A stretch of DNA of 64,000 bases from an uncultured bacterium (GTDB taxonomy: Bacteria; Bacillota_I; Bacilli_A; RF39; UBA660), in the NCBI GenBank assembly GCA_946643435.1, contig CAMPCD010000001.1, positions 88,117 through 152,116 of the forward strand. Direction: 5' to 3'. Positions 30,437-60,642 of the stretch are shown one piece after another. Position 1 is the stretch's first letter, and each line of letters begins with the position of its first letter. A program made the position numbers and the translations under genes. The notes under the pieces were generated by a model. It saw nothing but the letters and a program-made list of their open reading frames with translations. It was not told the origin of the DNA and did not search any database.

Positions 30437-30513
30437 GCTATTTAACGTATAAATGTAGTAAACCAGGAATTTATTAATTGATTTTACCCCTTATATCTAG
30501 TAATATTAATATA

Positions 30514-30619
30514 GGCAAGATATGAAAATAACTTGCCGATAGCTCTAACGATTTAACCAATGTTAGAGTATATCAACCAAAACCCCCTGAATGGCTCCCT
30601 TATGGGAGTCTCTTTTTTT
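30514..30619 (+). ncRNA. Candidate small RNA (~105 nt): promoter, two hairpins, C-rich unpaired stretch, intrinsic terminator
   Basis: TTGATT(30478-30483)-17 nt-TAATAT(30501-30506). Hairpins GGCAAG/CTTGCC and CTCTAAC/GTTAGAG. Unpaired UAUAUCAACCAAAACCCCCUGAAU. Terminator GGCTCCC-ttat-GGGAGTC plus T8 (30593-30619). Lies between the terminator of the upstream gene and the promoter/SD of the downstream gene. Confidence 0.35.
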
Positions 30620-30685
30620 ATGTAAAGAATAGTAAGCAAAATATAAAGATATACTATATATGGTATAATTAATATGGTGATAATC

Positions 30686-31990: not shown

Positions 31991-32003
31991 CCTATGCTTT
32001 TTT
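31978..32003. terminator. Bidirectional terminator shared by phosphatase gene (+) and recG (-)
   Basis: CATAGG-tagataa-CCTATG hairpin followed by CTTTTTT. Confidence 0.6.
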
Positions 32004-33996
32004 AATCTGTATTTAATAGTTTTTCTTCTATTACTTTGTAATATGAATAATCTCTAAAGCCATTATCAATATTATTATTAATAAATTCTTCACTATCTTT
32101 TTTACATTGTAATAATATTTTCATATCAGTTCTTATATCAGCAATCTTAAAGACCATATCACCATGTTGTTTAGTTCCAAACAAATCTCCTGATCCTCTT
32201 AACTCATAATCTTTATCAGCTATATAGAAACCATCATTAGATTCACACATAACATGTAATCTATCTGTTTCTTTATCAGATATTAATAGACAGTATGATT
32301 GTAACTCATTTCTACCTACTCTACCTCTTAACTGATGAAGTGTAGCTAGACCAAATCTTTCAGCATTAAATATGGTCATAACTGTAGAGTTTTTAACATC
32401 TACTCCTACTTCAATTACAGTAGTAGATATTAATATGTCTACTTTACCATCTTTAAACTTGTTCATAACTTTATCTTTATCAACTTGTTTCATCTTGCCA
32501 TGTAATATTTCTATTGATGGTTTAATAGATAAATTGTTAACAAGCAAATCTTTTATCTTCTTTAAATCTTGTAACTCTTCTCTATCTTCTTCATCATCTA
32601 TTAAAGGAGCAACTACATATACTTGATGTCCTTCATTTATTTGTTTTGTAATAACGCTACATACTTCTTTAATTTTATTCATTGGATAAAGATTAGTTAT
32701 TATTTCTTTTCTACCACTTGGTTTACTCTTAATCATAGATATATCCATATCACCATATATAGTTAATGCATATGTTCTTGGTATTGGTGTAGCTGACATA
32801 TATAATACGTCTACATTCATACCTTTATTTTGAAGTGCTTTTCTTTGATTAACTCCAAATCTATGTTGTTCATCTGTTACTACTAATCCTATATTATTAA
32901 ACTCTATATCATCAGATATAATGGCATGAGTACCAATTAATATATCTATTTCATTTGTTAATAACTTATTCTTTATCAACTTTTTATCTAGAGCACTTGT
33001 ACTACCTGTTAATAAAGCAACTTTTATATTTGGAAATAATTTAACAAAATTATCATAATGTTGATTAGCTAATACTTCTGTAGGTGCTAGTATAGCTGAT
33101 TGATATCCACATGATAAATTAACTAAACAAGCAATAAATGATACTATTGTCTTACCAGATCCTACATCACCTAATACTAATCTATTCATTCTCTTTTCAT
33201 CTTTAAAATCATTAACAATATCTTCTATGGCTTTATCTTGATCTTCAGTTAATTCAAATGGTAAAGATGATTTGATTTTATCTATAATAGAAGAATCAAC
33301 ATTCTTTATGTAATAATCATTAAATACTCTAGATTTTAACTTCAATAAATTAATTTTAAACATAAATTCAAATAATTCATCATATTTAAGTTTTAACTTA
33401 GATTTTTTTAATCTATCTAAACTAGTTGGATTATGTATTTCTTTAATAGCACTTTCTGTATCTAACAATTCATATCTATCATTTATATATGTTGGTAATA
33501 CATCTTCAACATTAAAAGAAGATAAACTATTATCAATCAAAGTCTTTAAACTTTTTCTCTTTAAACCTTGAACCATATGATAAACAGGTTCTACTTCAGT
33601 CTTAATAATTGGATAAAGCTTTATATCCGATGCAGTAAAACTATTATTCTTAATAGAATACTTACCTATTAAAGTAATGTCCTTTCCAATTGATAAAGAT
33701 TGTTTAAGATATGATCTATTAAAAATAACTACTTTAATAATCTTGCCATTTGTCTCTAAATTAAAAGCTAATCTATTTAATGTCTTCTTAATAAAGAAGA
33801 TATTTGGATTACTTACTATCTTACCAGATACAACTATTGTATCCTCTTCATTAATATCACGACTAATATCAACTGGATGATAGATATTATATCTATATGG
33901 ATAATATCTAATTAAATCATCTATAGTATTAATATTTAACTTATTTAAATACTCTAAAGTCTTAGGTCCAACACCTTTTAATTGAGACAATTCCAT
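32002..33996 (-). CDS. recG: ATP-dependent DNA helicase RecG
   Basis: Walker A LGDVGSGKT. DEQH motif VTDEQHRFG. Wedge plus helicase architecture. 664 aa. Confidence 0.9.
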   Translation of the reverse strand: MELSQLKGVGPKTLEYLNKLNINTIDDLIRYYPYRYNIYHPVDISRDINEEDTIVVSGKIVSNPNIFFIKKTLNRLAFNLETNGKIIKVVIFNRSYLKQSLSIGKDITLIGKYSIKNNSFTASDIKLYPIIKTEVEPVYHMVQGLKRKSLKTLIDNSLSSFNVEDVLPTYINDRYELLDTESAIKEIHNPTSLDRLKKSKLKLKYDELFEFMFKINLLKLKSRVFNDYYIKNVDSSIIDKIKSSLPFELTEDQDKAIEDIVNDFKDEKRMNRLVLGDVGSGKTIVSFIACLVNLSCGYQSAILAPTEVLANQHYDNFVKLFPNIKVALLTGSTSALDKKLIKNKLLTNEIDILIGTHAIISDDIEFNNIGLVVTDEQHRFGVNQRKALQNKGMNVDVLYMSATPIPRTYALTIYGDMDISMIKSKPSGRKEIITNLYPMNKIKEVCSVITKQINEGHQVYVVAPLIDDEEDREELQDLKKIKDLLVNNLSIKPSIEILHGKMKQVDKDKVMNKFKDGKVDILISTTVIEVGVDVKNSTVMTIFNAERFGLATLHQLRGRVGRNELQSYCLLISDKETDRLHVMCESNDGFYIADKDYELRGSGDLFGTKQHGDMVFKIADIRTDMKILLQCKKDSEEFINNNIDNGFRDYSYYKVIEEKLLNTD

Positions 33997-34154
33997 ATAG
34001 ATCTTCCTTTCATTTTTAATTATATCATTTAATGTTATTATAGACTAAAAAAACGGCAATTTATAACTTAAAATTATATAATTATATAGGGATATAACCG
34101 TAGGTTATAGGGTATATAATTTTTTTAAATAAATGCTTAAAAATGCACTAAAAA

Positions 34155-34174
34155 AAGTTGACAAACATCAACTT
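34155..34174. terminator. Hairpin AAGTTGA-caaaca-TCAACTT flanked by A7/T4; near-identical copy of argS terminator element at 22830-22856
   Basis: AAAAAAAGTTGAYAAACAYCAACTTTTC occurs at 22832-22858 and 34149-34176. Acts as minus-strand terminator (U7) and contains TTGACA -35 for plus-strand sRNA candidate. Confidence 0.5.
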
Positions 34175-34191
34175 TTCAATTAGTATATATC

Positions 34192-34288
34192 GTACCAATT
34201 CACTTACAGGCGAATTGGTGCTAGTATCACACTAGCCAACCCCTTTTTATTCTTTGGAAGGCGTCCTCAGGGGGACGCCTTTCTTTTT
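34192..34288 (+). ncRNA. Candidate small RNA (~97 nt) with near-consensus sigma-A promoter and GC-rich terminator
   Basis: TTGACA(34158-34163)-17 nt-TAGTAT(34181-34186). Hairpins ACCAATTC/GAATTGGT and GCTAGT/ACTAGC. Unpaired CAACCCCUUUUUAUUCUUUGG. Terminator AAGGCGTCC-tcaggg-GGACGCCTT plus TTCTTTTT. Terminator GC content is anomalous for this genome. Confidence 0.35.
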
Positions 34289-34290
34289 GT

Positions 34291-34482
34291 TTAAATAAAT
34301 ATATTTAATATATCTAGTATTAAAGATCCACTTAAATATGTTAAAGCCATAATAATTAATGTAGTAAATATTCTAGCTTCCCATATATGATTAGTTTTAA
34401 ATATATTATTAATATTAATACCAGATACAGCGAATGTTGATACTAGCAACATTATTCCATATACTAAAATCTTAATACTCAT
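34291..34482 (-). CDS. Possible small two-TM membrane protein (63 aa)
   Basis: Hydrophobic ORF overlapping rpiB stop by 11 nt. Confidence 0.35.
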   Translation of the reverse strand: MSIKILVYGIMLLVSTFAVSGININNIFKTNHIWEARIFTTLIIMALTYLSGSLILDILNIFI

Positions 34483-34918
34483 CAGATTCGTACTCTTCTA
34501 TTTCTTTTAATCTTCTAATGTGTCTTTCATCGCCATAGAATGATTCTTCTATAAAAGCTAATGACATAGCTCTAATCTTATCAATATCTTCTTTATAAGA
34601 CATTGCAAGTATTTGTGCGTTGTTATGACCCTTAGCTAATTTAGCTTCTTCTACAGATGAAGCTAAAGCACAACGAATACCTCTATGTTTATTAGCTGCT
34701 ATTGCCATACCAATACCTGTACCACACATTAATATTCCTAAGTCTACTTCTCTTTTTTGAATTGCTCTACAAACTTTATGAGCAAATTTAGGATAATCAT
34801 CTAATGGATCATTAACAGGAGAGTAATCTTTAATTTCATAACCCTTCTTTGTTAAATATTCTATTAGTATCTTCTTTTCATTCACACCATTGTGATCTGT
34901 AGCTATACCTATTTTCAT
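34472..34918 (-). CDS. rpiB: Ribose-5-phosphate isomerase B (RpiB/LacAB family)
   Basis: MKIGIATDHNGVNEKK...GILMCGTGIGMAIAANK. Start at internal Met with GGAGGAA SD; the longer ORF-track start overlaps upstream gene. Confidence 0.85.
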   Translation of the reverse strand: MKIGIATDHNGVNEKKILIEYLTKKGYEIKDYSPVNDPLDDYPKFAHKVCRAIQKREVDLGILMCGTGIGMAIAANKHRGIRCALASSVEEAKLAKGHNNAQILAMSYKEDIDKIRAMSLAFIEESFYGDERHIRRLKEIEEYESDEY

Positions 34919-34919
34919 T

Positions 34920-35912
34920 TTATTCCTCCTCCATAGCCTTTTTAAATCTAGGCAACAAACCATATTTATCTTTTTTATGTACTGGCAATTCATATAAGTC
35001 GTGTCCTGGGAAATCATTACCTTCTATTAGGCATGGTTTCTTTTCACCTAAGCAAACGTCCCATGCAATATATCCTACCTCAGGAACAACTTCACATGCA
35101 TCAATACATAACTTTTTAACATCATCCCACATAGGTATTTGAATACCTACTATTTTTTTATTTGTTTCAGGATGTACTTCAAACACATTAGTATCTTTAT
35201 CAATAGCTGGGAAATTAATCTTTCCTGTATCAACATCAATAGCTGTTACCATACCACCATGATTAAAGTTATCTACAACATTACCATGGTTACCTATTCT
35301 TAAGTAAGCAGTAACTACTTTCTTATTTAGTGTAACTATTCTTAAAGTATTTACTGAATGAGGATATAACTCATTCAATAAATGATGTTGTTCAGCAACA
35401 TCTTCTACTAATGTTTGTCCAGATTCTAATAAATCATTATAAAGTTTATCTATATCTTTTGGTACTTTAATCTTATCTACGCCTTTTCCACATGATAAGT
35501 CTAATGGTTTTACTATAACTTCCTTTTTACCCTTTAAATAGGCCTTAAAATCATCTACAGAAGCATCTTTTAAATAAATCCATTCTCTATTAAGATATTT
35601 ATCAAATAATTTATTAAATAAAGCCTTATCTTCAAATATACTGATCTTAGTTTTATCATTAAATCTTTTTACTATATCATTATTAACTCCACGAGTTATT
35701 ATTGTTTTTCTTTCATCTTCATTCATATCAAACATTCTAAATTGATAATAATCAACATAGCCTGCACCATATTTAGATGCACAGTGTGCCCAATCAAAAA
35801 ATATACCAATTCTATTTTTATGATTTATGTCATGAACCATATTAATAGTCTTAAACATATTTCCATAATTCATATGAATAATTCTTTGAAATATATAACT
35901 AATCTTACCCAT
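34920..35912 (-). CDS. ATP-grasp domain protein (sugar-transfer-associated ATP-grasp type)
   Basis: Central ATP-grasp fold signature (KPLDLSCGKGV..., ...EGNDFPGHDLY). Start set at MGKISYIF preceded by AAGGAGAA. Confidence 0.55.
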   Translation of the reverse strand: MGKISYIFQRIIHMNYGNMFKTINMVHDINHKNRIGIFFDWAHCASKYGAGYVDYYQFRMFDMNEDERKTIITRGVNNDIVKRFNDKTKISIFEDKALFNKLFDKYLNREWIYLKDASVDDFKAYLKGKKEVIVKPLDLSCGKGVDKIKVPKDIDKLYNDLLESGQTLVEDVAEQHHLLNELYPHSVNTLRIVTLNKKVVTAYLRIGNHGNVVDNFNHGGMVTAIDVDTGKINFPAIDKDTNVFEVHPETNKKIVGIQIPMWDDVKKLCIDACEVVPEVGYIAWDVCLGEKKPCLIEGNDFPGHDLYELPVHKKDKYGLLPRFKKAMEEE

Positions 35913-36065
35913 ACAATTCTCCTTATGGTTATTATACCACATATTTAATTTTATAATAACCTCTACCTATTATATCATTTTATAGTTGATACTTTATAAA
36001 TTGATTGAATACTTTACAACTTATAGTATTAATATATGTTATAATTATTACAATGAGGTGTCATG

Positions 36066-46904: not shown

Positions 46905-48251
46905 CTACTTTCCTACACAAAACTTACTAAATATCTCATCTAGTAATTCTTCTTTATATGTTTCACCTATAACTTCGCCTAATAAATTATAAGTCATTTG
47001 AATATCATCTGCAATTATTTCAAATGGTAATTCATTCTTAGTATTATTTATTGATTCTTCTATAGATTCTACTGCTTTTTTAACTAATGATAATTCTCTT
47101 GCATTAGTTAAATAATTATAATTATTAGAATCTAATTCATTAAGGTTAAACATCTCAACAATTTTATTTTTTAAATTATCTAATCCTTCAGGAGTTGTAG
47201 TATTACCATATACTACTTCTTCTTTAATATCAGATAAATCTATCTTACTATCTAAATCATTCTTGTTAACAAATATAATCTTTTTAACATTATTTAAAGA
47301 ATCAAGTAATTCTTTTTCTTCAGGAGTCATATCTGTATTATTATCTAATATAAATATAACTAAATTAGCTTTATTGATTATATCTTTAGATTTATCTACA
47401 CCTATACGTTCTACTACATCATCAGTTTCTCTTATACCTGCAGTATCTATTAGATTTATTTTAATACCATTTAAACTTATAGATCCTTCAACTATATCTC
47501 TTGTAGTACCTGCAATATTAGTTACAATTGCTTTATTTTCATTTAATAAATGGTTAAGAATTGAACTTTTTCCTACATTAGGTTTTCCTACTAAAGCAAC
47601 ATCTATTCCTTCTTTTATTATTTGTGAATTATTATAACTATTAACTAAATCTTTTAATTCTTCTTTAATACTAGTTAATCCTTCTAATACTTTATCATAA
47701 GTTATTTCTTCTTCTATTTCTTCAGGATAATCAAATATTACTTCTAATTCAGCTTGTAATGATAATAATTCTTTTCTATGCTTTTTAATTAATTTAGATA
47801 AATTACCTTCTACCCTATTCATAGCTAATTTACGTGATTTTTCAGTTTCAGCTACAATTAAATCATTTATACCTTCTGCTTCAAGTAAATCAATTCTACC
47901 ATTTAAATAAGCTCTTTTAGTGAATTCTCCTGGTTCAGCTAATCTACAACCATTTAAAAGTAATAATTCTAATATCTTATTTGTAGTTGAAATACCACCA
48001 TGAGAGTTAATTTCAATAACATCTTCCATAGTAAAAGTTTTAGGAGCATCCATTTTCATGATTAATACTTCATCTACTACTTCTTCTTTATCTAATATAT
48101 GGGCATATGAAATAGTATGTGATGCTTTTTTTGTTATATCTATATCACATATTTTATTGACTATATTAAATACATCAGGTCCTGTTGCCCTAATAATTGA
48201 GATAGCACCAACACCTAAAGCAGTTGAAATTGCACAAATATTTTCATTCAT
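46905..48251 (-). CDS. mnmE: tRNA modification GTPase MnmE (TrmE)
   Basis: G1 GKPNVGKSSILN. C-terminal CVGK. ORF-track start is GTG inside the SD; ATG 9 nt downstream used. Confidence 0.9.
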   Translation of the reverse strand: MNENICAISTALGVGAISIIRATGPDVFNIVNKICDIDITKKASHTISYAHILDKEEVVDEVLIMKMDAPKTFTMEDVIEINSHGGISTTNKILELLLLNGCRLAEPGEFTKRAYLNGRIDLLEAEGINDLIVAETEKSRKLAMNRVEGNLSKLIKKHRKELLSLQAELEVIFDYPEEIEEEITYDKVLEGLTSIKEELKDLVNSYNNSQIIKEGIDVALVGKPNVGKSSILNHLLNENKAIVTNIAGTTRDIVEGSISLNGIKINLIDTAGIRETDDVVERIGVDKSKDIINKANLVIFILDNNTDMTPEEKELLDSLNNVKKIIFVNKNDLDSKIDLSDIKEEVVYGNTTTPEGLDNLKNKIVEMFNLNELDSNNYNYLTNARELSLVKKAVESIEESINNTKNELPFEIIADDIQMTYNLLGEVIGETYKEELLDEIFSKFCVGK

Positions 48252-48335
48252 ATATTTCACCCCATATAAGCAATTGTATTATATCACTTTCATAATATAA
48301 AACAAAGTAATAAAAAAACACATAAATGTGTTTTA

Positions 48336-48887
48336 TTATTTTGTGCATCCAGTAAATACAAAAGGCAAAAATAAAATAGATAATAATCCTATGACGAGTA
48401 TTATCATTGCATTATGATAACCTTTTTTTAATTGGTATAAAATAGTATAAGCCTTTTCTATTGTTTCGCTTTCATAGTTATCGCGGTAGTATTTGATTTT
48501 ATTATAATCAGCACCTAATTCTTGTAAACTAAAAGATTTAGTTTTCCAATGTTCATATTTTTTTAACATATTTGAAGCAAATATTTCTGAAATATATTCT
48601 TCTGAATTATCTATATATTCCTTAATTTTTTTATTATTAGGATATTCTATTAAATACTTATTAGCCAAATCATAACATTTTTGATAATTACCATTATCAA
48701 AATATTCTTTAAGTTCATTAATACAGTTACTAAGTTTACTATTAATATTCTTCACTGTAATAGATTCTTCATCTAATAAGGATGTTACTCCACAATAATT
48801 ACAAGTAAATTTTTCTAAATTAGAGTTAACTTCTAATTTAGCTCCACATGAAGGACAAACTAATTTTAATAATTTCATACTAATCAC
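48336..48887 (-). CDS. Zinc-ribbon protein with C-terminal TM anchor (hypothetical)
   Basis: CPSCGAKL...CNYCG zinc ribbon. C-terminal IILVIGLLSILFLPFVF. Confidence 0.55.
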   Translation of the reverse strand: MISMKLLKLVCPSCGAKLEVNSNLEKFTCNYCGVTSLLDEESITVKNINSKLSNCINELKEYFDNGNYQKCYDLANKYLIEYPNNKKIKEYIDNSEEYISEIFASNMLKKYEHWKTKSFSLQELGADYNKIKYYRDNYESETIEKAYTILYQLKKGYHNAMIILVIGLLSILFLPFVFTGCTK

Positions 48888-48940
48888 TCACTTATATACT
48901 TATTATATCAAAAATAATATAAAACAAATAAAAAAGAGGA

Positions 48941-49555
48941 CTAATCCTCTTTTGGTTTAACAACTATATGTCTATTAGGTTCTTCACCTTCAGATTCAGT
49001 ATAAACTGTCTTAAATTTTTCAGATATGTAATTATGAATAATTCTTCTTTCATATGAATTCATATTTTCCATAATAACAGGATTTTTAGTTTGTTCTACT
49101 TCTTTAGCTATTGTTTTAGCTGTTCTAATTAAATATTTTTCTTGGTTTTCTTTATAATTAGATACATCTAATAATACATAAGGATAACAACCTGTAGCAT
49201 TCTTAACTACTTGTTTAACTACTGTAGTTAATGCTTGAAGTGTCTTACCTTGTTTACCAATTAAAATATTATTATTGTCTGAGAACATTCTAATTGTAAT
49301 TTGTTTTTCTCTTACTTGAGTTTCAAATGAAACATCTAATCCCATATCTTTAGTTAAATTTTCTAAATAATGTTTAATAAATGCTAATACTTCAGTCATT
49401 TTAAAAACATGTAATTTAACTAATTCTTTCTTTAATAAACCAACTTTTTCTTTAGTTACTGAATAAAGAATATCATCTTCTTCTAATTTTAATTCATCTA
49501 AAGCTTGTTGTATTAATGTTTCTTTATCTTTTCCTTCATATAAATATTCTTGCAT
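48941..49555 (-). CDS. jag: Jag/KhpB RNA-binding protein (KH plus R3H domains)
   Basis: C-terminal R3H SYERRIIHNYISEKFKTVYTESEGEEPNRHIVV. Downstream of yidC. Confidence 0.8.
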   Translation of the reverse strand: MQEYLYEGKDKETLIQQALDELKLEEDDILYSVTKEKVGLLKKELVKLHVFKMTEVLAFIKHYLENLTKDMGLDVSFETQVREKQITIRMFSDNNNILIGKQGKTLQALTTVVKQVVKNATGCYPYVLLDVSNYKENQEKYLIRTAKTIAKEVEQTKNPVIMENMNSYERRIIHNYISEKFKTVYTESEGEEPNRHIVVKPKED

Positions 49556-49556
49556 A

Positions 49557-50504
49557 TTACTTACCTACTTTCTTTATGATTAATGTTTGTATTACTGAGA
49601 ATGCATTTATAATTACCCAATATAAAGCGATTGCTGAAGGTAATTGGAATGATGCAATACCAATAAATACTATCATCATGATCATCATCATCTTAGATTG
49701 TCTTTGTTGTTCTGAATTACCTGACATGCTACTCATTGAAATCATGAAAGTTAATACAGTAAATAATATAATTAATACAAGTAATATAATATACCAATAA
49801 TTACCATGAGTTATTCCATATAAAGGAGTTGTACCTAATTGGAAAGCCCATAAGTTATTTTCAAATATTGCAGGAGTTCTATTAATTGCTTCTAAGAAAG
49901 CAAAGAATATTGGTAATTGAACTAACATAATTAAACAAGATGATAAAGGATTAACTTTATACTTTTGATAAATCATCATAGTTTCTTGAGATTTCTTCAT
50001 CATACTGTTTTGATCATCTTTACCTGCATATTTCTTTTCAAGTCTTTCTAATTCAGGTTGAACTTTTTTCATTACTTCTTGTTGTTTAGTAGATTTAATA
50101 GTAAATGGTAATAAAATAATTCTAATAATTATACCTATTAACATAACTGATATACCTATGTTACCTACTAGTTTACCAACATTAATTATTAACCATGATA
50201 ATGGTTGTACAAATAATTGAGTCCAGATTCCTTCATAAGGATTCTTCCAAGCACCCATTTCATCACATACAACTAAATTATCTAGATTAGTTGGATTTTT
50301 ACCACTATTTATTAAATCTTTATTTTCATTATATTTATTTAATAATTGTTCATCTTTTGGTAAACATAAAATATTAGCTGTTAAAGCTTGACCTGTTGCA
50401 TCATTAATAATTCGTTGTTTATTATTATCAACTAATGTTTGAGTACATCCTGTTAATAAAAAAACAAACATAACTATTAATACTAGTTGTAGTTTCTTTT
50501 TCAT
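49557..50504 (-). CDS. yidC: Membrane protein insertase YidC/SpoIIIJ (lipoprotein type)
   Basis: Lipobox LLTGC. Five-TM 60-kDa insertase core. Position rnpA-yidC-jag. Confidence 0.9.
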   Translation of the reverse strand: MKKKLQLVLIVMFVFLLTGCTQTLVDNNKQRIINDATGQALTANILCLPKDEQLLNKYNENKDLINSGKNPTNLDNLVVCDEMGAWKNPYEGIWTQLFVQPLSWLIINVGKLVGNIGISVMLIGIIIRIILLPFTIKSTKQQEVMKKVQPELERLEKKYAGKDDQNSMMKKSQETMMIYQKYKVNPLSSCLIMLVQLPIFFAFLEAINRTPAIFENNLWAFQLGTTPLYGITHGNYWYIILLVLIILFTVLTFMISMSSMSGNSEQQRQSKMMMIMMIVFIGIASFQLPSAIALYWVIINAFSVIQTLIIKKVGK

Positions 50505-50828
50505 TTAATCACCCTTAATAATATTCAATATATCTTCTTCCAATACAATATACTTAGCTTCTATTGCATTTCTCTTCACTATTATAATATAATCATTACC
50601 ATTTTTAAACATATTTTTATATTTATTAAGTATCATCCTAGTTACTCTTTTCATTTTATTTCTGATAACTGCTGTACCATTCTTTTTTGATACAGCAATA
50701 CCAAATCTATTAAAGTTTAAATTATTATCCTTATTATATATAACAAAAAAAGTACCCTTTTTATATTTACCAGTATTAATGATATTATCAAAATCTTTAT
50801 GTTCTTTAACTATTTCATATTTTTTCAT
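50505..50828 (-). CDS. rnpA: RNase P protein component
   Basis: 107 aa basic protein. KKNGTAVIRNKMKRVTRMIL motif. Confidence 0.85.
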   Translation of the reverse strand: MKKYEIVKEHKDFDNIINTGKYKKGTFFVIYNKDNNLNFNRFGIAVSKKNGTAVIRNKMKRVTRMILNKYKNMFKNGNDYIIIVKRNAIEAKYIVLEEDILNIIKGD

Positions 50829-50842
50829 TAATACTCCTCCAT

Positions 50843-50869
50843 AAAATAAAAACCACTATAAAAAGTGGA
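50843..50869 (-). terminator. Attenuator/terminator hairpin between rpmH and rnpA
   Basis: Minus strand CCACTTTTTATAGTGG followed by TTTTTATTTT. Confidence 0.6.
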
Positions 50870-50995
50870 TTATTTTGTAATTAAATTTTTTCTTCCTTTA
50901 GCTCTTCTAGTTTTTAATACTTTACTATTCTTACGAGCGAAGAATCCATGTTTTTTAGCTTTTTTTCTATTATTTGGTTGAAATGGTCTTTTCAT
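50870..50995 (-). CDS. rpmH: 50S ribosomal protein L34
   Basis: [41 protein letters not shown] (41 aa). Not in ORF track (<60 aa). Confidence 0.9.
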
Positions 50996-51317
50996 AAAAT
51001 TACACCTCCACATCTCAAATGCAAGGTTATTATATTATATTAATTTTTTCAAGTCAACCTATTTTCGTAGATTATAGCACTTTTCAACTGTTTGAACGTT
51101 CATTGTTAATAAATTATTAATAGTTTTCAAATACTTTTAAAACAAATTTGTTGAAACTGTTGAAAACTTAATTATTTCCCTTTATAATAGGCAATTAAAT
51201 GTTGATAAGTATGTTGATAACTAAGTGAAAACTTTTTTATTAATATATTAACTTTACTTTTTCAACATGGATATATTAAACTTTATTTAGTGTTAAAAAA
51301 ATAGACAGGGTGGTTAT
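50996..51317. other. oriC, left part (rpmH-dnaA intergenic) with DnaA-box variants
   Basis: TGTTGATAA x2 (51200-51208, 51212-51220; rc TTATCAACA). TTTTCAACA-type boxes at 51081-51089, 51158-51166, 51259-51267. GTTTCAACA at 51149-51157. Confidence 0.7.
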
Positions 51318-52739
51318 ATGAATGTTGATGAACTTACAACTAATTTTCAGGCAACGATACAATCTAAAGTATCCAACGCATTATATAACGCATGGTTCAA
51401 GAATCTACAAATATTAGATATAGATCAATCAACTATAGTAATGTATATAGATTCAGACTTTAAGAAGAAAAAGATACTTGAAAATAGTAGTTATATAGAT
51501 ATTATAGAAAAAACTTTAAAAGATATAACTAAAAAAGATTATAATTTTGAACTTGTAACTGATTTTATGATAAATGAGGAACCTACTCCTCCTAAAATTG
51601 AAAATAATAATAATAATAATAATTTTATAAATAACTTTAATAATACTAATAATATTATTACTCAGGAAGAACAAGCTGAATATAGAAATATTAATAGTAA
51701 TTTAAATCCTAACTATAGATTTGATAACTTTATTGTTGGAGAATCAAATATGGTTGCTCAAGCTGCTGCATTGGAAGTTGCTAAAAATCCAGGTAAAACA
51801 TTTAATCCATTCTTTATATATGGTAGATCTGGAATTGGTAAAACCCATTTAATGCATGCAATTGGTAATTATATAGTAGAAAATAGTAATAAATCTGTAT
51901 TATATGTTACATCTGGACAATTCATTGAAGATTTTACTGAAATGACTAGAAAATATAATAATACTGATAATACTAGTTTAATTGAACGATTTAAAGATAA
52001 ATATCGTAATATTGATGTATTAATAATAGATGATATTCAAATGTTAAAGGATGCTAGTAAAACACAAAATGAATTCTTCCAAACATTTGATTTACTACAA
52101 AATAATAATAAACAAATAATTATATCTTCGGATACATCACCAAATGACTTAAAGATGTTTGAAGATAGACTTAAAACTAGGTTTAATTGGGGAATGACCC
52201 TAGATATTAAGCCTCCTGAATTAAGTTTAAAGATAAAAATATTAAAGAATAAGATATTAGGTATGGAAATAGCCAGTGAAATAGATGAAGATGTATATGA
52301 ATATATCGCAACTAATTCATTATCAGACGTAAGAACACTAGAAGGTGCTATAAATAGACTACTAGCCTATACTTCTCTATTCGTACCTGATAGAATTACA
52401 TTAGACTTTGCAAAAGAAGCTTTAAAAGATTACTTAGGTAATAATCAGTATACTACTAATGATTTAGCTAAAATACGAAAAGTAGTAGCTGAATACTATG
52501 ATGTTACCGAAGATTCAATAAAAAGTAAGAAAAGACAAGCAAATATCAATAAAGCAAGGCAAGTTGGTATGTACTTAGCTAGTATAACTACTGAAGAAAC
52601 AGTCGAAAAGATTGGTATTGAGTTTGGTAGAGATCATGCTACTGTACTACATGGTGTATCTAAAATAGAAGAACAATTAAAAGAAGATAAAGAACTTAGT
52701 CATGAGATATCTGAACTAAGAGATAAATTAATAAGTTAA
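51318..52739 (+). CDS. dnaA: Chromosomal replication initiator DnaA
   Basis: AAA+ Walker A GRSGIGKTHLMHA. Sensor/box VII. C-terminal DNA-binding domain ...KRQANINKARQVGMYL. Poly-Asn linker encoded by (AAT)7 at 51603-51623. Confidence 0.95.
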   Translation: MNVDELTTNFQATIQSKVSNALYNAWFKNLQILDIDQSTIVMYIDSDFKKKKILENSSYIDIIEKTLKDITKKDYNFELVTDFMINEEPTPPKIENNNNNNNFINNFNNTNNIITQEEQAEYRNINSNLNPNYRFDNFIVGESNMVAQAAALEVAKNPGKTFNPFFIYGRSGIGKTHLMHAIGNYIVENSNKSVLYVTSGQFIEDFTEMTRKYNNTDNTSLIERFKDKYRNIDVLIIDDIQMLKDASKTQNEFFQTFDLLQNNNKQIIISSDTSPNDLKMFEDRLKTRFNWGMTLDIKPPELSLKIKILKNKILGMEIASEIDEDVYEYIATNSLSDVRTLEGAINRLLAYTSLFVPDRITLDFAKEALKDYLGNNQYTTNDLAKIRKVVAEYYDVTEDSIKSKKRQANINKARQVGMYLASITTEETVEKIGIEFGRDHATVLHGVSKIEEQLKEDKELSHEISELRDKLIS

Positions 52740-52878
52740 AAAGTAATTAATTATTAACATATAATACTAATAATTATTTATAAAAATCAACGTATTTGTG
52801 TATAAAATAACACTTTTCAACTTTTTCAACAGCCTATAATAATACTAAATATAAAAAAGAAAGAAAGAAGGAATAAAC
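52740..52878. other. oriC, right part (dnaA-dnaN intergenic): DnaA boxes plus AT-rich unwinding element
   Basis: TTTTCAACT/TTTTCAACA at 52814-52831. Flanking runs of A/T. Confidence 0.6.
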
Positions 52879-54000
52879 ATGAAGTTTTCAATAAATAAAA
52901 ATATTATATTAAATGAATTAATAAATGTATCTAGAGCTATATCTTCTAGAAATATTATACCTATATTAAATGGTATTAAATTTGACTTAAATAATGAAGG
53001 ATTATATTTAACAGGATCTGATTCAGATCTTACTATTAAATCTTATATACCTAAAGATAAGATAGAATCTGTTGAAAAAGAAGGAGTTATTATTATCCAA
53101 TCTAAATATTTATTAGATATTATTAAGAAAATGCCTGGAGAAATTGTTAACTTTGAAGTTGTAGATGACTTAAAGATAATTATTTATTCAGATAATTCAG
53201 AATATAATTTAAATTGTTTAAATAGTTTAGATTATCCTGAAATACAATTAGAAGATAATACTACTCATATTAATTTATTATCTAGTGAATTAAAGAAAAT
53301 GATTAATCAAACATCATTTGCTGTATCAAATCAAGAATCTAGACCTTTATTAACAGGTTTAAATATTAAAATTAATGGTGATATTCTAGAATGTGTTGCA
53401 ACAGACTCTTATAGATTAGCTAAGAAAGTTATTACTTTAGCTACACCATATGAAGAAAATGTTAATATAGTTATACCTGGTAGAACTATATGTGAATTAG
53501 ATAAAATATTAGAAGATAAAGAAGAAAATGTAGAAATACATGTATTCCCTAAGAAAATTATGTTTAAATATAATAATATAATATTCCAAACTAACCTATT
53601 AAATGGTGAATATCCTAATACTTCTAACTTTATTCCTACTGAATTTACTCATATAGTTAAAGTTAATTTAAATAATTATTATTCATCATTAGATAGAGCT
53701 GCCCTACTTACTCAAAGTAAGGAAAAGAATATTGTAAAGATGGAATTATTAGAAAATACATTGATTTTATCATCATTTGCTTCAGAAATTGGTAAAGTTG
53801 AAGATAAAATACAAGTAGAAAGAAATATTCAAGATTCATTAAGTATTAGTTTCTCATCTAAATATATGATGGATGCCTTAAAAACATTTGATTCAGAAGA
53901 TATTACTATTAATATGACTACTGATTCAAAACCTATTATTTTAAAGGCTACAGATGATGATTCACTTGTACAATTAATATTACCTATTAAGACATATTAA
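52879..54000 (+). CDS. dnaN: DNA polymerase III beta sliding clamp
   Basis: 373 aa. Three-domain clamp. Follows dnaA. Confidence 0.9.
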   Translation: MKFSINKNIILNELINVSRAISSRNIIPILNGIKFDLNNEGLYLTGSDSDLTIKSYIPKDKIESVEKEGVIIIQSKYLLDIIKKMPGEIVNFEVVDDLKIIIYSDNSEYNLNCLNSLDYPEIQLEDNTTHINLLSSELKKMINQTSFAVSNQESRPLLTGLNIKINGDILECVATDSYRLAKKVITLATPYEENVNIVIPGRTICELDKILEDKEENVEIHVFPKKIMFKYNNIIFQTNLLNGEYPNTSNFIPTEFTHIVKVNLNNYYSSLDRAALLTQSKEKNIVKMELLENTLILSSFASEIGKVEDKIQVERNIQDSLSISFSSKYMMDALKTFDSEDITINMTTDSKPIILKATDDDSLVQLILPIKTY

Positions 54001-54037
54001 GAAGATTTTATATCTTCTTTTTATTTTTGTTAAAAAA

Positions 54038-54056
54038 TCGACATTTTTCGACATTT
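54038..54056 (+). promoter_or_regulatory. Direct repeat TCGACATTT-t-TCGACATTT upstream of comK-like gene
   Basis: Two 9-bp copies separated by 1 nt, ~40 bp upstream of ATG 54094. Confidence 0.3.
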
Positions 54057-54093
54057 CTTTTTGTTATAGTACCCATTGAAAAGGAGATGTATT

Positions 54094-54543
54094 ATGAAAA
54101 ATTATGTGATAACTGGGGATACTTTAGCTATATTACCCTACTCTACAGGATCTATTATATATGAGACTAATCAAACACTTATAATTAATAAATTACCTAA
54201 TAATATAATTAGTTATAACTGTTTATTATTTGGTTCTTCCTATAAAGGCAGAGTTAAAGGTTCTAAGAATCTAATTGGATTTAAGTATAAAAATCCTATT
54301 AGTATTAATGATAGTTTAATATTCTTTCCCACTACTTCACCTAGATTAAAGGAATGTAGCTGGATTAATTATATTAATGTTAAAAAAGTTGATTTTATTA
54401 ACAATATAAATATGACTAAAATACAGTTTATTAATGATTTAGAATTGAAATTTCATATATCAAAAAATATAATAAATAATCAAATTAATAAATCTTATAT
54501 TTTGAATAGCAAAATTCACATGAATTTAGGCTATTTTGTGTAA
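54094..54543 (+). CDS. ComK-family protein (competence transcription factor-like)
   Basis: Similar to staphylococcal/bacillary ComK across its length: YVITGDTLAILP, CLLFGSSYKGR, IFFPTTSPRLKECSWINYINVKKV, TKIQFINDLELKFHISKN. Start at Met with AAAGGAGA SD. Confidence 0.55.
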   Translation: MKNYVITGDTLAILPYSTGSIIYETNQTLIINKLPNNIISYNCLLFGSSYKGRVKGSKNLIGFKYKNPISINDSLIFFPTTSPRLKECSWINYINVKKVDFINNINMTKIQFINDLELKFHISKNIINNQINKSYILNSKIHMNLGYFV

Positions 54544-54645
54544 TTTATTGTTTTTTAACCCTTATTTTTATGATATAATATATTTGTGTATAGGAGTACA
54601 TAAAAGGTCTAATTTTGCCTTAAAAATTAATTTAGGGGGATTATT

Positions 54646-55743
54646 ATGAAATTTATTAATATTAAGTTAACAAATTTTCGTAATTATAAAAAACTTAATC
54701 TTTCATTCAATCCTACTAAAAATATAATAATAGGTGAAAATGGAGAAGGTAAGACAAATATAGTAGAAGCTTTATATGTATTAGCTTTATCCAAATCTTT
54801 TAGAGGATCTAAAGAAGATGTAATTATATTAAATGGTGAAGATTCTACATGTATAGAAGGAACTGTTAAAGATAATTACAAGGATAAATATAAGTTAGTT
54901 TTATCTAAAGAGGGTAAGAAAGTATTTATTAATGATACTAAAATAGATAAAATATCTGATTATTTATCCAAAATAAACATAGTTTTATTTACTTCTGAGG
55001 ATTTAAAACTTATTAAAGATACTCCAAATACAAGAAGAAGACTTATCAATATTGAATTAAGCCAATATTCTAATGAATATCTTAAGTTATTATCTAATTA
55101 TAATAAAGTACTTAAACAAAGAAATGCATTCCTTAAAATGTTATATTTCAATGGTAATGCATCACGTAATTATTTAGATATATTAACGGATCAATTGATT
55201 GAAATAGGTTTAAAACTATATAATTATCGACAAGATTTTGTTAATAATATATCTAATTATATTGAAAATAATTACTATAAAATAGCTAAAAAGCATGGAT
55301 TAGTACTTAGTTATAAGTCTGATTATAAAAATAAATCAAAAGAAGACTTATTAAATATGTATAAAAAGAATATAGATAAAGATATAACTCAAGGTAAAAC
55401 AAATTTAGGTATTCATCATGATGATTTTATATTTGAATTAAATGGTAAAAATTTAAAGGATTATGGATCAGAGGGTGAACAAAAAAATGCTATTATAAGC
55501 CTTAAAATGGCTGAAATAGACATATTTAAGAATGATTTGAATATTATGCCTATATTGATATTAGATGATTTATTTTCAGAATTAGATAAGAAGAAAATAA
55601 ATAATATATTAGATTTTATATCTGATGATATACAAACTTTTGTTACAACAACAGATCTTACAAAAGTTGATAAGAGATTAAAAGTAGGTAGTAAAATATT
55701 TAAAATAAAAAATGGTAGCATTAAGGAGGTAAATTATGAATAA
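54646..55743 (+). CDS. recF: DNA replication and repair protein RecF
   Basis: Walker [20 protein letters not shown]-like signature and D-loop [12 protein letters not shown]. Confidence 0.9.
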
Positions 55744-57688
55744 AGAACAAATAAAAGAATTAAACGCTAAAATCGATGAATATGATGATAGTGAGATTCA
55801 AGTTCTTGAAGGACTAGAGGCAGTTCGTAAAAGACCTGGTATGTATATAGGTACTACTTCTGAAAGAGGATTACATCATTTAGTTTGGGAAATTGTTGAT
55901 AATTCAATAGATGAAGCTTTAGCTGGTTTTTGTACTGATATTCAAGTAAAAATAGAGAAGGGAAATATTATATCTGTTAGAGATAATGGACGTGGTATGC
56001 CAACTGGAATGAACGAAAAAACTGGAAAATCTACAATAGAAACAATATTTACTGTATTACATGCAGGTGGTAAGTTTGGTGGAGGAGGATACAAAGTATC
56101 TGGTGGACTTCACGGAGTAGGTGCGTCTGTTGTTAATGCGTTATCTACATGGTTGGAAGTAAAAGTATATAGAGATGAAAAAGTATATTTTCAAAAATTT
56201 GAAAATGGTGGACAACCATTAGGAGCTACTACTGTTATTGATTCATGTGATAATGATATCCATGGTACAGAAGTAAGATTTAAAGCTGATCCTACTATAT
56301 TTACTGAAACTACAGTATATAATTATGCAACATTAGAACAAAGATTAAGAGAATTAGCTTTCTTAAATAAAGGATTAAGAATATCTTTAATTGATGAAAG
56401 AGAAGATGAAATAAAAAGAGCTAATTTCCATTATGAAGGTGGTATATCTGAATATGTTAAGCTATTAAATAAGAATAAAACACCAATTCATGATGTAGTT
56501 GCATTTGAAGGTGAAGAAGACGATATTTCTATTGAAATAGCTTTACAATACAATGAAGAATATAATTCAGCTATATATTCATTTACTAATAATATTAGAA
56601 CACATGAAGGTGGAACTCATGAAGATGGTGTAAAAGCTGCATTAACAAGAATTATTAATAAATATGGTAGAAATACTAATATTTTAAAAGAAAAAGATGA
56701 AGCTTTAAAAGGTGAAGATGTACAAGAAGGTTTAACTATGGTTATTTCTTGTAAACACCCAGATCCACAATTTGAGGGACAAACTAAGACTAAATTAGGT
56801 AACTCTGAAGTAAGAAAGATTGCAAGTGATGTATTTAGTGAAGGATTTGAACGTTATTTAATGGAAAATCCTGAACAAGCACGAACAATTGTTTCTAAAT
56901 GTGCTTTAGCTTCTCAAGCTAGATTAGCTGCAAAGAAGGCTAGAGAAAATACAAGAAGAAAAACAAGTTTAGATAGCATTAATTTTATGGGTAAATTGAC
57001 TGATTGTAAGTCTAAAAATGCTGAAGAGTGTGAAATATTCATAGTCGAGGGTAATTCCGCTGGTGGTTCTGCTAAAATGGGTAGAGATTATATGACTCAA
57101 GCAGTATTACCATTAAGAGGAAAAATATTAAATGTTGAAAAAGCTAGATTAGATAGAGCTTTAAATAATGAAGAAATAAAATCTATGATTACTGCATTTG
57201 GTACAGGAATTGGTGAAGATTTTGATGTTAATAAATTAAGATATCATAAAATAATTATCATGACTGATGCCGATGTTGATGGTGATCACATCAGAACATT
57301 ATTATTAACATTATTCTATAGATTCTTTAAACCTATAGTTGAAGGTGGATATGTATATGCAGCTCAACCTCCATTATTTAAGGTTACATATGGTAAAAAG
57401 ACAGTTTTAGTTCAAACTGAAAATGATTTACCTAAAGTATTAGAAGAAATACCTGAAAAATATAGAAATAATGTAATAATTAACCGATTCAAAGGTTTAG
57501 GTGAAATGAATCCAGAAGAATTAAGAGATACAACAATGTCTAAAACAAATAGAGTTTTAAGAAGAATCACAGTTGATGATGCAATGGCAGCTGATGAAGC
57601 ATTTAGCTTATTGATGTCAGATAATGTTGAACCAAGACGTGATTTCATTGTTGAAAATGCTGGATATGTTAAGAATTTAGATATATAG
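55736..57688 (+). CDS. gyrB: DNA gyrase subunit B
   Basis: GHKL ATPase, TOPRIM ([14 protein letters not shown]), C-terminal tail. 650 aa. Confidence 0.95.
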
Positions 57689-57700
57689 GAGGTTTGAAAC

Positions 57701-60283
57701 ATGGATGATAAAGAATTAGAAATAAATGAAGTAGAAGAAGTTCAAGAATCTGATGTCGAAGATGATGAACTTGAAGAAGAAACTGTTTCAACTTCTGTAG
57801 CAAATGATGAAATGGTTGATAATGATATTGTTAAAGAAATTAAAGATTCATTTTTACAATATTCAATGTCAGTTATAGTATCTCGTGCTTTACCAGACTT
57901 AAGAGATGGTTTAAAACCAGTTCATAGAAGAATACTATATTCAATGTATGAAAATGGTATTACACCTGATAAACCACATAGAAAATGTGCTACTACTGTA
58001 GGAGCCGTTATGGGTGCTTACCATCCACATGGTGATACATCTATATATGATGCTTTAGCTAGAATGGCTCAAGATTTCTCATATAGATATCTATTAATAG
58101 ATGGACATGGTAACTTTGGTTCTATGGATGGTGATGATCCTGCAGCTATGCGTTATACTGAAGCAAGATTAGCAAAATTATCACTAGAAATGACTAGAGA
58201 TATTAAAAAAGATACTATTGATTTTGTAGATAACTTTGATGCTACAAGAAAAGAACCAACAGTATTACCTTCAAGATTTCCTAATATATTAGTAAATGGT
58301 ACTATGGGTATTGCTGTAGGTATGGCAACAAATATACCTCCACATAATTTAAGAGAAGTAGTAAATGGATGTGTTGCTGTATTAGACAATCCTGATATTG
58401 ACTTAGATGAATTAATGACTATAGTTAAAGGTCCAGATTTTCCTACAGGAGCAATAATACTTGGAAATTCAGGTATTAGAAAAGCTTATGCTACAGGAAA
58501 AGGTACAATAACTATAAGAGGTAAGGTAGAAATACAAGAAAAACAAAATCATAGTTTAATTGTTATTACTGAAATACCTTATGGTGTTAATAAGAAAGAA
58601 TTACAAACAAAAATAGCTGAATTAGTTAGAGATAAAGTTATTGAAGGTATATCTGATTTACATGAAGAAACAAACCTAGAAAATGGTATTAAAATTGTTG
58701 TTACATGTAAGAAAGATGCTAATGCTAATGTAATTTTAAATAATTTATATAAATCAACACCATTACAAATAACATATGGTATTAACTTCTTAATGCTTGA
58801 TAATGGTATTCCTAAAACATTAGGACTAAAAGATATATTAATTAAATATACAAATTATCAAAAAGAAATTATTATTAGACGTACAAGATATGATCTAGGA
58901 CAAGCTGAAAATAGAGTACATATTTTAGATGGTGAAATAATTGCTATCAATAATATTGATGATTTCGTACATATTATTCGTGGTTCTAGAACAGATCAAG
59001 AAGCTAAGAGTAGATTAGAAGAAAAATATGGACTAGATAATATTCAATCTGAAGATATCTTACAAATGCGTTTAAGAAAGTTAACTGGTCTTGAATTAGA
59101 TAAAGTCACTGAAGAACGTGATGGATTATTAAAGGATATTGAAATGTATAATGCTATATTAAACTCTGATGAAATGGTAAGAGATGTTGTTAAGAAAGAA
59201 TTATTAGATATTGCTAATAGATTTGGTGATGAAAGACGTACTCATATTGATATGACTGCAATTGATTATATTGAAGATGAATCATTAATACCTGAAGAAA
59301 ATATAATAATTACATTAACTGATAAAGGTTATATTAAGAGATTATCATCTGATACATACCGTGAACAAAATCGTGGTGGTGTAGGAGTTAAAGGAATGAC
59401 TACTAACGAAGATGATTATGTTAAATTCTTAATTAATTCTTCAACTCATGATTATGTATGTATTTTCACTAATAAAGGAAGAATTTATAGATTAAAAGGA
59501 TATGAAATACCTGAATATGGTAGAAATGCTAAGGGATTACCAATTATTAACTTAATTCAAATAGAAAAAGATGAAAAAGTTAATGCAATAATCAATGTTT
59601 CACGTGAAACATCAGCTCAATATACAGTATTTGCTACTAAACAAGGTATTATTAAGAAGACTCCTAACTCTGAATTTGAAAATATTAGAAAGTCTGGTAA
59701 GATTGCTATTACGTTACATGAAGGTGATGAATTAATAGATGTTAAGTTATCAGATGGAAAACAAAATATTATTTTAGGATCTACAACAGGTAAGATTGTA
59801 GTATTTGATGAAAATGAAATTAGACCAATGGGTAGAACAGCTACTGGTGTTAAGGGTATTAACCTTGATGGTGGTGAATGTACTGGTATGGAAGTTGGAA
59901 CTGACGATGATAACTTATTAGTTATTTCTCGTAATGGATACGGTAAGCGTACATTTGTAAAAGATTATCGTAAGACTAAACGTGGTTCTAAAGGCGTATT
60001 AAGTATTAAAGCTACTGATAAAACCGGTGGTATGATAGCTCACAAGATTGTAGATAACGATAAATCATTATTAATTGTAACTGAACAAGGTATGATTATT
60101 AGAATAAGTGTTGATTCAATATCTCAATTAAATAGAGTTACTCAAGGTGTAAGATTAATTAATCTTAAAGATGATCAATATGTTTCTACAGTAAGTATTA
60201 TTTCTAAGGAAGAAGAACCTGAAGAAATGGTAGATGAAACTACAGAATCATCTAATGAAGAAATAAAGGAAGAGACTGAATAA
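57701..60283 (+). CDS. gyrA: DNA gyrase subunit A
   Basis: Active-site region [35 protein letters not shown]-terminal beta-pinwheel. 860 aa. Confidence 0.95.
59595..59612. promoter_or_regulatory. parS site inside gyrA coding sequence
   Basis: ATGTTTCACGTGAAACAT, an exact match to the four intergenic copies. Encodes NVSRET. Confidence 0.7.
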
Positions 60284-60515: not shown

Positions 60516-60544
60516 TTGTTAATAATTAATAAATAAGATATAAT
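60516..60544 (+). promoter_or_regulatory. Promoter of SRP RNA gene
   Basis: TTGTTA(60516-60521)-17 nt-TATAAT(60539-60544). G at 60551 about 7 nt downstream. Confidence 0.6.
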
Positions 60545-60550
60545 TAAATT

Positions 60551-60627
60551 GCGCAACGATTATATTATAAACTGGTCAGGACAGGAATGTAGCAGCCACA
60601 TTAATCCCTAGTCGTGTGCGCTTTTTT
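60551..60627 (+). ncRNA. ffs: Small signal recognition particle RNA (4.5S/scRNA-type, domain IV hairpin)
   Basis: GGTCAGGACAGGAATGTAGCAGCC matches the SRP domain IV consensus GGUCAGGUCCGGAAGGAAGCAGCC with a GGAA tetraloop closed by ACA/TGT. Terminal helix GCGCAACGA/TCGTgTGCGC followed by T6. Located before tadA-dnaX as scr is in Bacillus. Confidence 0.65.
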
Positions 60628-60642
60628 AGTGAGATGATTTAT

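Follow-up and report, generated by a model that had tools for sequence, protein, structure and literature searches.

Sequence comparison identifies a real and very strongly conserved small RNA (sRNA) gene, here named sRNA-1, at positions 34158-34293 of the forward (+) strand of a 64,000-nucleotide (nt) stretch of contig CAMPCD010000001.1 (GenBank assembly GCA_946643435.1) from an uncultured bacterium. The window hereafter means this whole stretch, in which all coordinates are given and whose guanine plus cytosine (GC) content is about 25% (25.5%). The gene stands alone, and its RNA of about 98 nt combines a conserved promoter, an intrinsic terminator and covarying helices with no conserved open reading frame (ORF), as is generic for an independently transcribed sRNA gene. 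Comparison of its copies demonstrates selection on the promoter, the terminator and the helices, all on the + strand. On balance, we favour the reading that sRNA-1 represents an undescribed family and acts in trans by pairing through two separate domains, like RsaI.

A sequence-only reading of the window had proposed at this position a discrete promoter-to-terminator unit of ~97 nt with a near-consensus promoter, two short hairpins and an unpaired C-rich stretch. These parts were recovered at essentially the same places, and the unit itself is borne out by the conserved promoter, helices and terminator. The promoter, TTGACA-17-TAGTAT (34158-34186), matches the consensus at 10 of 12 positions; its -35 hexamer TTGACA (34158..34163; tgTTGACAAA in the promoter logo) is separated by a 17-nt spacer from the -10 hexamer TAGTAT (34181..34186). 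Transcription is predicted to start at 34192..34194, 1-2 nt 5′ of the first hairpin (P1), as judged from the distance between the -10 hexamer and P1 and from the start of the covariance-model match at 34192. P1 (34194..34219) has the arms ACCAAUUC and GAAUUGGU around a variable loop, with 34194-34201 pairing with 34212-34219. It is followed by hairpin P2 (34220..34236), GCUAGU-AUCAC-ACUAGC, in which 34220-34225 pairs with 34231-34236 and AUCAC forms the loop. The 19-nt C/U-rich stretch CAACCCCUUUUUAUUCUUU (34237..34255), a putative seed, is unpaired in both the minimum free energy and the centroid folds and has an opening energy of 0.06 kcal/mol; the transcript has a single CCCC run (34240-34243), and the loops of P1 and P2 have none. 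The RNA ends in a GC-rich terminator hairpin of 12 pairs, seven of them G-C (34256..34283), with a conserved G-track, UCAGGGGG, at its apex (34267..34274) and a U-tract behind it (34284..34293).

Folding of the ~100-nt transcript gave -37.5 kcal/mol (z = -5.3 against dinucleotide shuffles). Promoter-like sites were no commoner than chance, either in the region (31 against 28.8 in shuffles) or over 20 kb (155 against 174); the promoter match alone is therefore weak evidence, and it is the conservation of sRNA-1 that identifies it as a gene. Terminator-like sites exceeded chance in the region (2 observed, 0.5 expected). Over 20 kb, the sRNA-1 terminator has 7 G-C pairs, that of a second sRNA gene described below (sRNA-2) has 5 and all other terminator-like sites have 3. 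With a GC content of 68% in the hairpin and 25.5% in the window, the earlier description of the terminator as anomalously GC-rich was a fair one.

Conservation was examined in two sets of relatives. Homologues of recG in GTDB genomes gave 80 loci, with RecG 50-83% identical, and the hosts were all uncultured gut or rumen metagenome-assembled genomes (MAGs) labelled 'Bacilli', 'Erysipelotrichales', 'Mollicutes' or 'Tenericutes'; an sRNA-1 element lies upstream of and divergent from recG in 65 of these loci. The sheep-rumen MAG RGIG6824 stands at 83% RecG identity. A degenerate-pattern scan of metagenome contigs, for which part of CAACCCCUUUUUAUUCUUU served as the search pattern, gave at least 120 stretches. 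In total, at least 174 copies were counted; they come from 173 DNA sources, which are gut and rumen Bacilli of low GC content. A covariance model applied at E ≤ 1e-6 returned exactly one sRNA-1 match per source, with the window match at 34192-34292 scoring 111 bits. Among the recG-linked copies, 53 alignment columns are invariant although RecG itself is only 50-83% identical, and CAACCCCUUUUUAUUCUUU is invariant in the recG-anchored copies, which were found independently of that motif.

The promoter is kept as TTGAC[AT]-N16/17-TAnnnT in 161 of the 163 copies with enough flanking sequence, and it is the spacer and the inner -10 bases that vary. Within these 161 homologous promoters, the -35 hexamer reads TTGACA (135) or TTGACT (26), the -10 hexamer keeps its TAnnnT frame as TAGTAT (84), TATTAT (44), TAATAT (18) and others, and the spacer measures 17 nt in 157. 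Of 156 copies, 135 place the initial C of P1 at a distance of exactly 8 nt from the -10 hexamer. At the 3′ end, a T-rich tail follows the terminator in 123 of 163 copies, and folding energies of -10 kcal/mol or better were obtained for 99% of the 137 distinct 3′ regions, compared with 9% of shuffled sequences. A logo of 143 distinct promoters revealed no conserved block in the 35 nt 5′ of the -35, only A/T runs, and inspection by eye found neither a recG promoter on the opposite strand inside the sRNA-1 gene nor cre-like promoter sites. No sequence similar to sRNA-1 was present in phage and plasmid collections, the literature library searched contained no paper with its signature sequences, and the metagenome scan yielded no contig with ends coinciding with the predicted RNA ends.

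The helices were assessed using a MAFFT alignment of 42 distinct cores, which was poor at the terminator, and a model-fitted alignment of 94 distinct copies, which was used in its place. In the former, four of seven P1 pairs show compensatory changes and 99.7% of P1 cells are paired; in the latter, 7 of 8 P1 pairs covary. Variants of P1 include CCAAAUC/GAUUUGG, CCAGCU/AGCUGG, CCAAACC/GGUUUGG and UCAAUUC/GAAUUGA. About 99.8% of helix cells are paired across the 42 distinct cores, which no shuffle or slid register approaches. The lower terminator helix has compensatory changes at 5 of 5 pairs, with both sides altered in 30-45 of the 94 sequences, and none of 500 shuffles reached the observed covariation of P1 and the terminator. 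G·U wobbles such as CCAGUUC/GAAUUGG and GCUAGU/ACUAGU are tolerable only in a + strand RNA, thereby fixing the strand of sRNA-1. In P2, the closing pair is G-C, G-U or A-U, and the other five pairs and the loop never vary among the 94 distinct copies; no complementary partner for this invariant hairpin was found in ~1.9 Mb of related DNA.

The G-track is a second conserved candidate for pairing. The sequence TCAGGGGG is present at the terminator apex in 126 of 164 copies, corresponding to 105 distinct hairpins with differing stems, and the strand opposite the invariant G-run toggles between C and U in the model-fitted alignment. A second unannotated promoter-to-terminator unit, sRNA-2 (~30478-30620, +), was met while the few G-runs of the window were being listed. 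Its promoter, read from the sequence as TTGATT-17-TAATAT (30478..30506), precedes a transcript (30512..30620) with hairpins at 30514-30537 and 30542-30569, the invariant unpaired seed CAACCAAAACCCCCUGAA (30574..30591) and a terminator (30593-30610) with a U-run; the invariant single strand reads CAACC[A/G]AAACCCCCUGAAG. Conservation in 91 sources, a promoter of the form TTGAnn-N16-18-TAnnnT in 78 of 78 homologues and compensatory changes at 12 of 12 predicted pairs of the two hairpins mark sRNA-2 as a solid gene in its own right, for which Rfam gave no match. It lies directly 3′ of recG in most relatives, and recG is thus bracketed by the genes of sRNA-1 and sRNA-2. Just 3′ of its terminator, a recurring short hairpin-like motif, CCCTTTATTTATAAGGG(T), was seen at many loci (e.g. 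L047, L067, L158 and L022).

The sRNA-2 seed contains CCCCCUGA (30583-30590), which is the exact complement of the sRNA-1 G-track. Contiguous runs of 8-11 Watson-Crick pairs between the 3′ hairpin of sRNA-1 and the sRNA-2 seed occur in 63 of the 72 fragments that hold both genes, compared with 1.7% of composition-preserving shuffles. The G-track (G5 and the preceding UCA) fits the C5UGA of sRNA-2 better than the C4 of the sRNA-1 seed itself. RNAcofold did not return this loop-seed contact between the two RNAs, whose pseudoknot topology is beyond that program.

Predicted mRNA sites were compared for both seeds. For the sRNA-2 seed, the best two sites among the 63 window genes are the ribosome-binding sites of dnaA and recF, at -17.3 kcal/mol against a mean of -7.2 (standard deviation 3.3; z about -3 for dnaA), and GGGG occurs upstream of only 2 of these 63 genes. 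The recF Shine-Dalgarno sequence AGGGGG (54634..54639, +; ATG at 54646) is a predicted sRNA-2 site of 8 bp and a weaker sRNA-1 site of 9 bp including one G·U (AAGGGGGUU : AACCCCUUU). At the dnaA ribosome-binding site ACAGGGUGGUU (51305..51315, +), pairing is predicted with both of the invariant blocks in the sRNA-2 seed. The comparison was then extended to eight recF loci of relatives (L201-L208; RecF 62-85% identical), two of them on contigs of loci carrying both sRNAs. All nine genomes keep the same unusual Shine-Dalgarno, GGGGG, in front of recF; elsewhere in these loci, the Shine-Dalgarno is of the GGAGG type in gyrA and gyrB and of the GAAGGAA type in dnaN. The recF site is the sole G5 run on either strand in seven of the eight 13-kb loci, and a sliding scan with the sRNA-2 seed placed it in the top 3 of ~8700 windows per locus in all eight. 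The dnaA site is also conserved, ranking in the top 3 for the same seed in 6 of 8 relatives' loci. The recF and dnaA ribosome-binding sites are the best conserved predicted mRNA sites of the sRNA-2 seed. For the sRNA-1 seed, the best match among the window genes was unremarkable (-16 kcal/mol, z about -2.4).

The dnaA and recF genes belong to the replication-origin region of the window (51318-60283, and 46905-51013 on the − strand), with a sign change of the GC skew near 52 kb. It comprises trmE-jag(khpB)-yidC-rnpA-rpmH to one side and dnaA-dnaN-comK-recF-gyrB-gyrA to the other. A ComK-family gene (54076-54543) separates dnaN from recF, both in the window and in each of the eight relatives. 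The KhpB/Jag homologue (48941-49555, −), with KH and R3H domains, is a candidate sRNA-binding partner; no Hfq was seen in the sampled DNA. A small 4.5S-type signal recognition particle RNA (60541-60635, +; 59.7 bits) and tRNA-Glu(CUC) (5765-5841, −) were the only Rfam or ARAGORN matches in the 64 kb.

By analogy, trans-acting base pairing of the RsaE/RsaI kind is inferred for sRNA-1. A sigma-A promoter would start the RNA 1-2 nt before P1, and the C/U-rich stretch CAACCCCUUUUUAUUCUUU would be a seed that pairs with G-rich Shine-Dalgarno regions, in the manner of RsaE/RoxS and RsaI; because G-rich sites are rare in this genome, the target set is expected to be small. The G-track UCAGGGGG would dock the C-rich seed CCCCCUGA of sRNA-2, and sRNA-1 would then be a decoy or sponge for sRNA-2, or its partner in a ternary complex. 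As modelled here, sRNA-1 may be an sRNA-2 decoy, a recF co-regulator or both. A more specific proposal, which we consider rather unlikely in its entirety, is a conserved two-RNA module bracketing recG. In this module, sRNA-2 (CAACC...CCCCCUG seed) would repress translation of recF and dnaA, the terminator loop of sRNA-1 would be a better-matching decoy that titrates sRNA-2, and the sRNA-1 seed would regulate further G-rich ribosome-binding sites. If true, the module would allow gut Bacilli with reduced genomes to switch replication initiation and recombinational repair at the RNA level.

Several observations weigh against trans-acting pairing by sRNA-1. All sRNA-1 sequences come from metagenome assemblies, and the gene is known from DNA alone. 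A conserved target of the sRNA-1 seed was not found among the window genes, the related loci or the eight dnaA-gyrA loci. When 1420 genes of the related loci were clustered by family, no recurrent gene family appeared among the seed matches, and the strong matches seen within coding regions of relatives have no counterpart in the window. Pairing of sRNA-1 with recF is moderate (-9.6 to -14.5 kcal/mol), and the net energy of the G-track with sRNA-2 in the window is modest (-6 to -7 kcal/mol after opening costs). The G-track is missing in 23 of 163 sRNA-1 copies whose genomes keep sRNA-2. In addition, the absolute sequence invariance of P2 has no explanation from the pairing model.

The setting of the gene bears on the alternatives. 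In the window, recG (32002-33996, −; RecG wedge and helicase domains) lies upstream of and divergent from sRNA-1. On the other side is a convergent − strand operon of an ATP-grasp gene (34920-35942), rpiB (34472-34921) and, as its last member, a hydrophobic ORF of 63 amino acids (34291-34482) with a weak match to DUF1146 (E = 5e-4). At one end, this DUF1146-like ORF overlaps the stop codon of rpiB, and at the other it comes to within 8 nt of the sRNA-1 terminator; ORFs of 65-67 amino acids occupy its position in the relatives' loci L001, L004 and L016. The sequence-only reading had placed sRNA-1 antisense to the rpiB operon, in its 3′ region, a placement that holds only if the convergent operon reads through, sRNA-1 being 8 nt beyond the stop codon at 34291. 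The minus-strand terminator hairpin that the same reading had placed on the -35 hexamer does exist, as an AU-rich hairpin (34150-34171, -9.8 kcal/mol) followed by U7 (34143..34171, −, in all). It is a candidate weak terminator for read-through of the rpiB operon and shows no general conservation among relatives.

The metagenome set was not selected via recG, and recG is upstream and divergent in 60 of its 88 sRNA-1 copies, within 400 nt in 51; in 27 of the 88 no recG is nearby, and the sRNA-1 sequence is unchanged. The presence of recG upstream in 60 of 88 copies indicates that this synteny is ancestral and not obligatory. On one metagenome contig (L147), two sRNA-1 copies stand in tandem about 790 nt apart (100-207 and 890-996, −), each with promoter, G-track and terminator. 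In most relatives' loci examined, the downstream gene is convergent and its identity depends on the genome. A protein family of 84-161 amino acids, with an acidic N-terminus and two hydrophobic segments, is mostly convergent with and adjoining sRNA-1 in one group of loci (L071, L072, L082, L110, L112, L114, L133, L145, L154, L156 and L183; e.g. L071:5410-5676, +). A GGGG(G) Shine-Dalgarno precedes 10 of its 11 members, and in L071 and L072, the members of this sub-clade that were checked, the sRNA-1 3′ hairpin has no U-tract.

Alternatively, sRNA-1 could act mainly in cis, as an antisense RNA or transcription roadblock on read-through of the convergent operon, or by interfering with the back-to-back recG promoter. 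In most loci examined, a few to tens of nt separate the terminator from the end of the convergent gene, the terminator has no U-tract in the reverse direction, and the divergent recG recurs at close range in the unbiased metagenome copies (60 of 88, 51 of them within 400 nt). An antisense role needs no sequence conservation, yet ~50 positions of sRNA-1 are invariant; moreover, the convergent neighbour differs among genomes, the same sequence persists in the 27 copies without recG nearby, and tandem copies occur on one contig. The recG ribosome-binding site shows no complementarity to sRNA-1, and recG was rejected as a target on that ground. We give a mainly cis-acting role little chance. It is barely conceivable that the unit is a cis-regulatory leader, whether riboswitch or attenuator, or that it encodes a tiny protein. 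The layout of a structured 5′ region and a terminator is also that of an attenuator, and pairing of the loop G-run with the C-run could provide an alternative structure. However, no ORF of at least 40 amino acids follows sRNA-1 on the + strand in the window, and the next gene is convergent and variable in most relatives examined, which excludes a leader or riboswitch as well as a conserved type I toxin. Rfam returned no riboswitch match, and the only in-frame peptides cross the variable terminator stem and are not conserved. A type I antitoxin was likewise considered and rejected: the convergent neighbour ranges from the 63-amino-acid DUF1146-like ORF to proteins of more than 1100 amino acids, and small membrane proteins occur only in sub-clades.

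If the function were chiefly protein binding or housekeeping, P2 and its flanking single strand would be recognised by, for instance, an RNA-binding protein of the KhpB/Jag type, and the C-rich stretch would be no seed. The contrast between the other helices, which covary, and P2, where five of the six pairs and the loop are without variation, suggests sequence-specific recognition. P2 has no complementary partner in the ~1.9 Mb of related DNA, and the window (48941-49555) as well as each of the eight relatives examined carries a gene for a KhpB homologue. Against this, no known protein-binding motif was recognised and the GGA after the G-run is not conserved; motifs are present in single copies, unlike the repeated sites of sequestering RNAs, and the complementarity to sRNA-2 is specific and conserved. 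We regard an exclusively protein-directed role as unlikely; a chaperone partner would be compatible with trans-acting pairing by sRNA-1 and does not exclude it.

For these gut and rumen Bacilli, which are abundant, uncultured and have small genomes, we know of no work on RNA regulators. With ~50 invariant positions, against a housekeeping RecG of down to 50% identity, sRNA-1 is among their most conserved non-coding sequences, and it represents a C-rich sRNA, predicted to target Shine-Dalgarno sequences, outside the Bacillales. The predicted sRNA-sRNA pair, with syntenic genes, is experimentally tractable, and the rare G-runs in the ribosome-binding sites of recF and dnaA provide a concrete target hypothesis. 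Both new families, with alignments and a covariance model, could enter Rfam, thereby annotating hundreds of MAGs.

The sequence-only reading had likened the unit to RsaE/RoxS and had named an Rfam scan as the check. Searches were run at the gathering threshold on the whole window and in E-value mode on 551 nt and on 108 nt; none of them assigned sRNA-1 to an Rfam family, and the weak matches were terminator-driven. No RsaE/RoxS match was obtained at threshold: the RsaE model (RF01820), whose gathering score is 79 bits, reached 18.0 bits and E = 0.36 in the 108-nt search and gave no match in the 551-nt E-value search or the whole-window gathering search. RsaE/RoxS is defined by a duplicated 10-nt motif, CCCCUUUGUU, of which one copy sits in a hairpin loop and the other lies unpaired between two hairpins. 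The unpaired motif pairs with G-rich Shine-Dalgarno regions, and binding to these regions in metabolic mRNAs blocks initiation. RsaE/RoxS has a conserved ResD/SrrA site near -65, is induced by nitric oxide and redox signals, and has been reported for Staphylococcaceae and Bacillaceae; its body is nearly identical between distant species, and its terminator varies.

Both RNAs are of ~100 nt with their own promoter and terminator, both carry an unpaired CCCCUUU-containing motif between a hairpin and the terminator (motif 2 of RsaE, CRR3 of RoxS), and both combine a near-identical body over distant species with a free terminator. In keeping with this, the RsaE model aligns to sRNA-1 end to end (hairpin, CA.CCCCUUU.U.U, terminator), and the motif is 8/10 identical to CCCCUUUGUU. 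These features would also be expected of a divergent true orthologue that controls central-metabolism and redox genes, as RsaE does in Bacillales. In contrast, sRNA-1 has one C-rich motif and none in a hairpin loop, whereas RsaE/RoxS have two to four; its 5′ hairpins P1 and P2 are unrelated to the RsaE hairpin, and its terminator loop carries a conserved G-track. The 35 nt 5′ of its -35 hold no conserved block (the ResD motif was not scanned for), and its hosts are uncultured gut Bacilli in which the gene adjoins recG. With a score of 18 bits in addition, true orthology appears improbable. The site and design of the C-rich stretch and the pattern of conservation thus stand from the earlier proposal, and membership does not: the likeness to RsaE/RoxS is right as a functional analogy, and family membership is unproven.

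Given the G-track, RsaI (RsaOG) of Staphylococcus appears to be a closer analogue of sRNA-1 than RsaE and, in function, the nearest precedent. Between its helices lies a long unpaired CU-rich region that binds mRNAs at their ribosome-binding sites, and G-tracks in its hairpin bind C-rich motifs of RsaG, RsaD and RsaE. sRNA-1 resembles it, in architecture and complementarity only, by the unpaired CU-rich stretch (34237-34255) and the G-track (34267-34274) complementary to a partner sRNA. However, RsaOG was absent from the Rfam matches up to E = 10 in the 551-nt and 108-nt searches, and there is no sequence or covariance-model similarity between the two RNAs, of ~98 nt and 144 nt, respectively. 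sRNA-1 has one G-track in the terminator loop, whereas RsaI has two in the first hairpin, and the partner gene of sRNA-1 is syntenic with it across recG. RosA of Bacillus subtilis is reported to be a sponge RNA that pairs with the C-rich seed of RoxS and controls RoxS level and efficacy (PMC8216469). The sponge role predicted for the sRNA-1 G-track towards sRNA-2 resembles that described role; unlike RosA, sRNA-1 also has a C-rich seed of its own. By analogy with these systems, sRNA-1 is predicted to be of the C-rich, Shine-Dalgarno-targeting kind of sRNA in Firmicutes and to represent a previously undescribed family within it.

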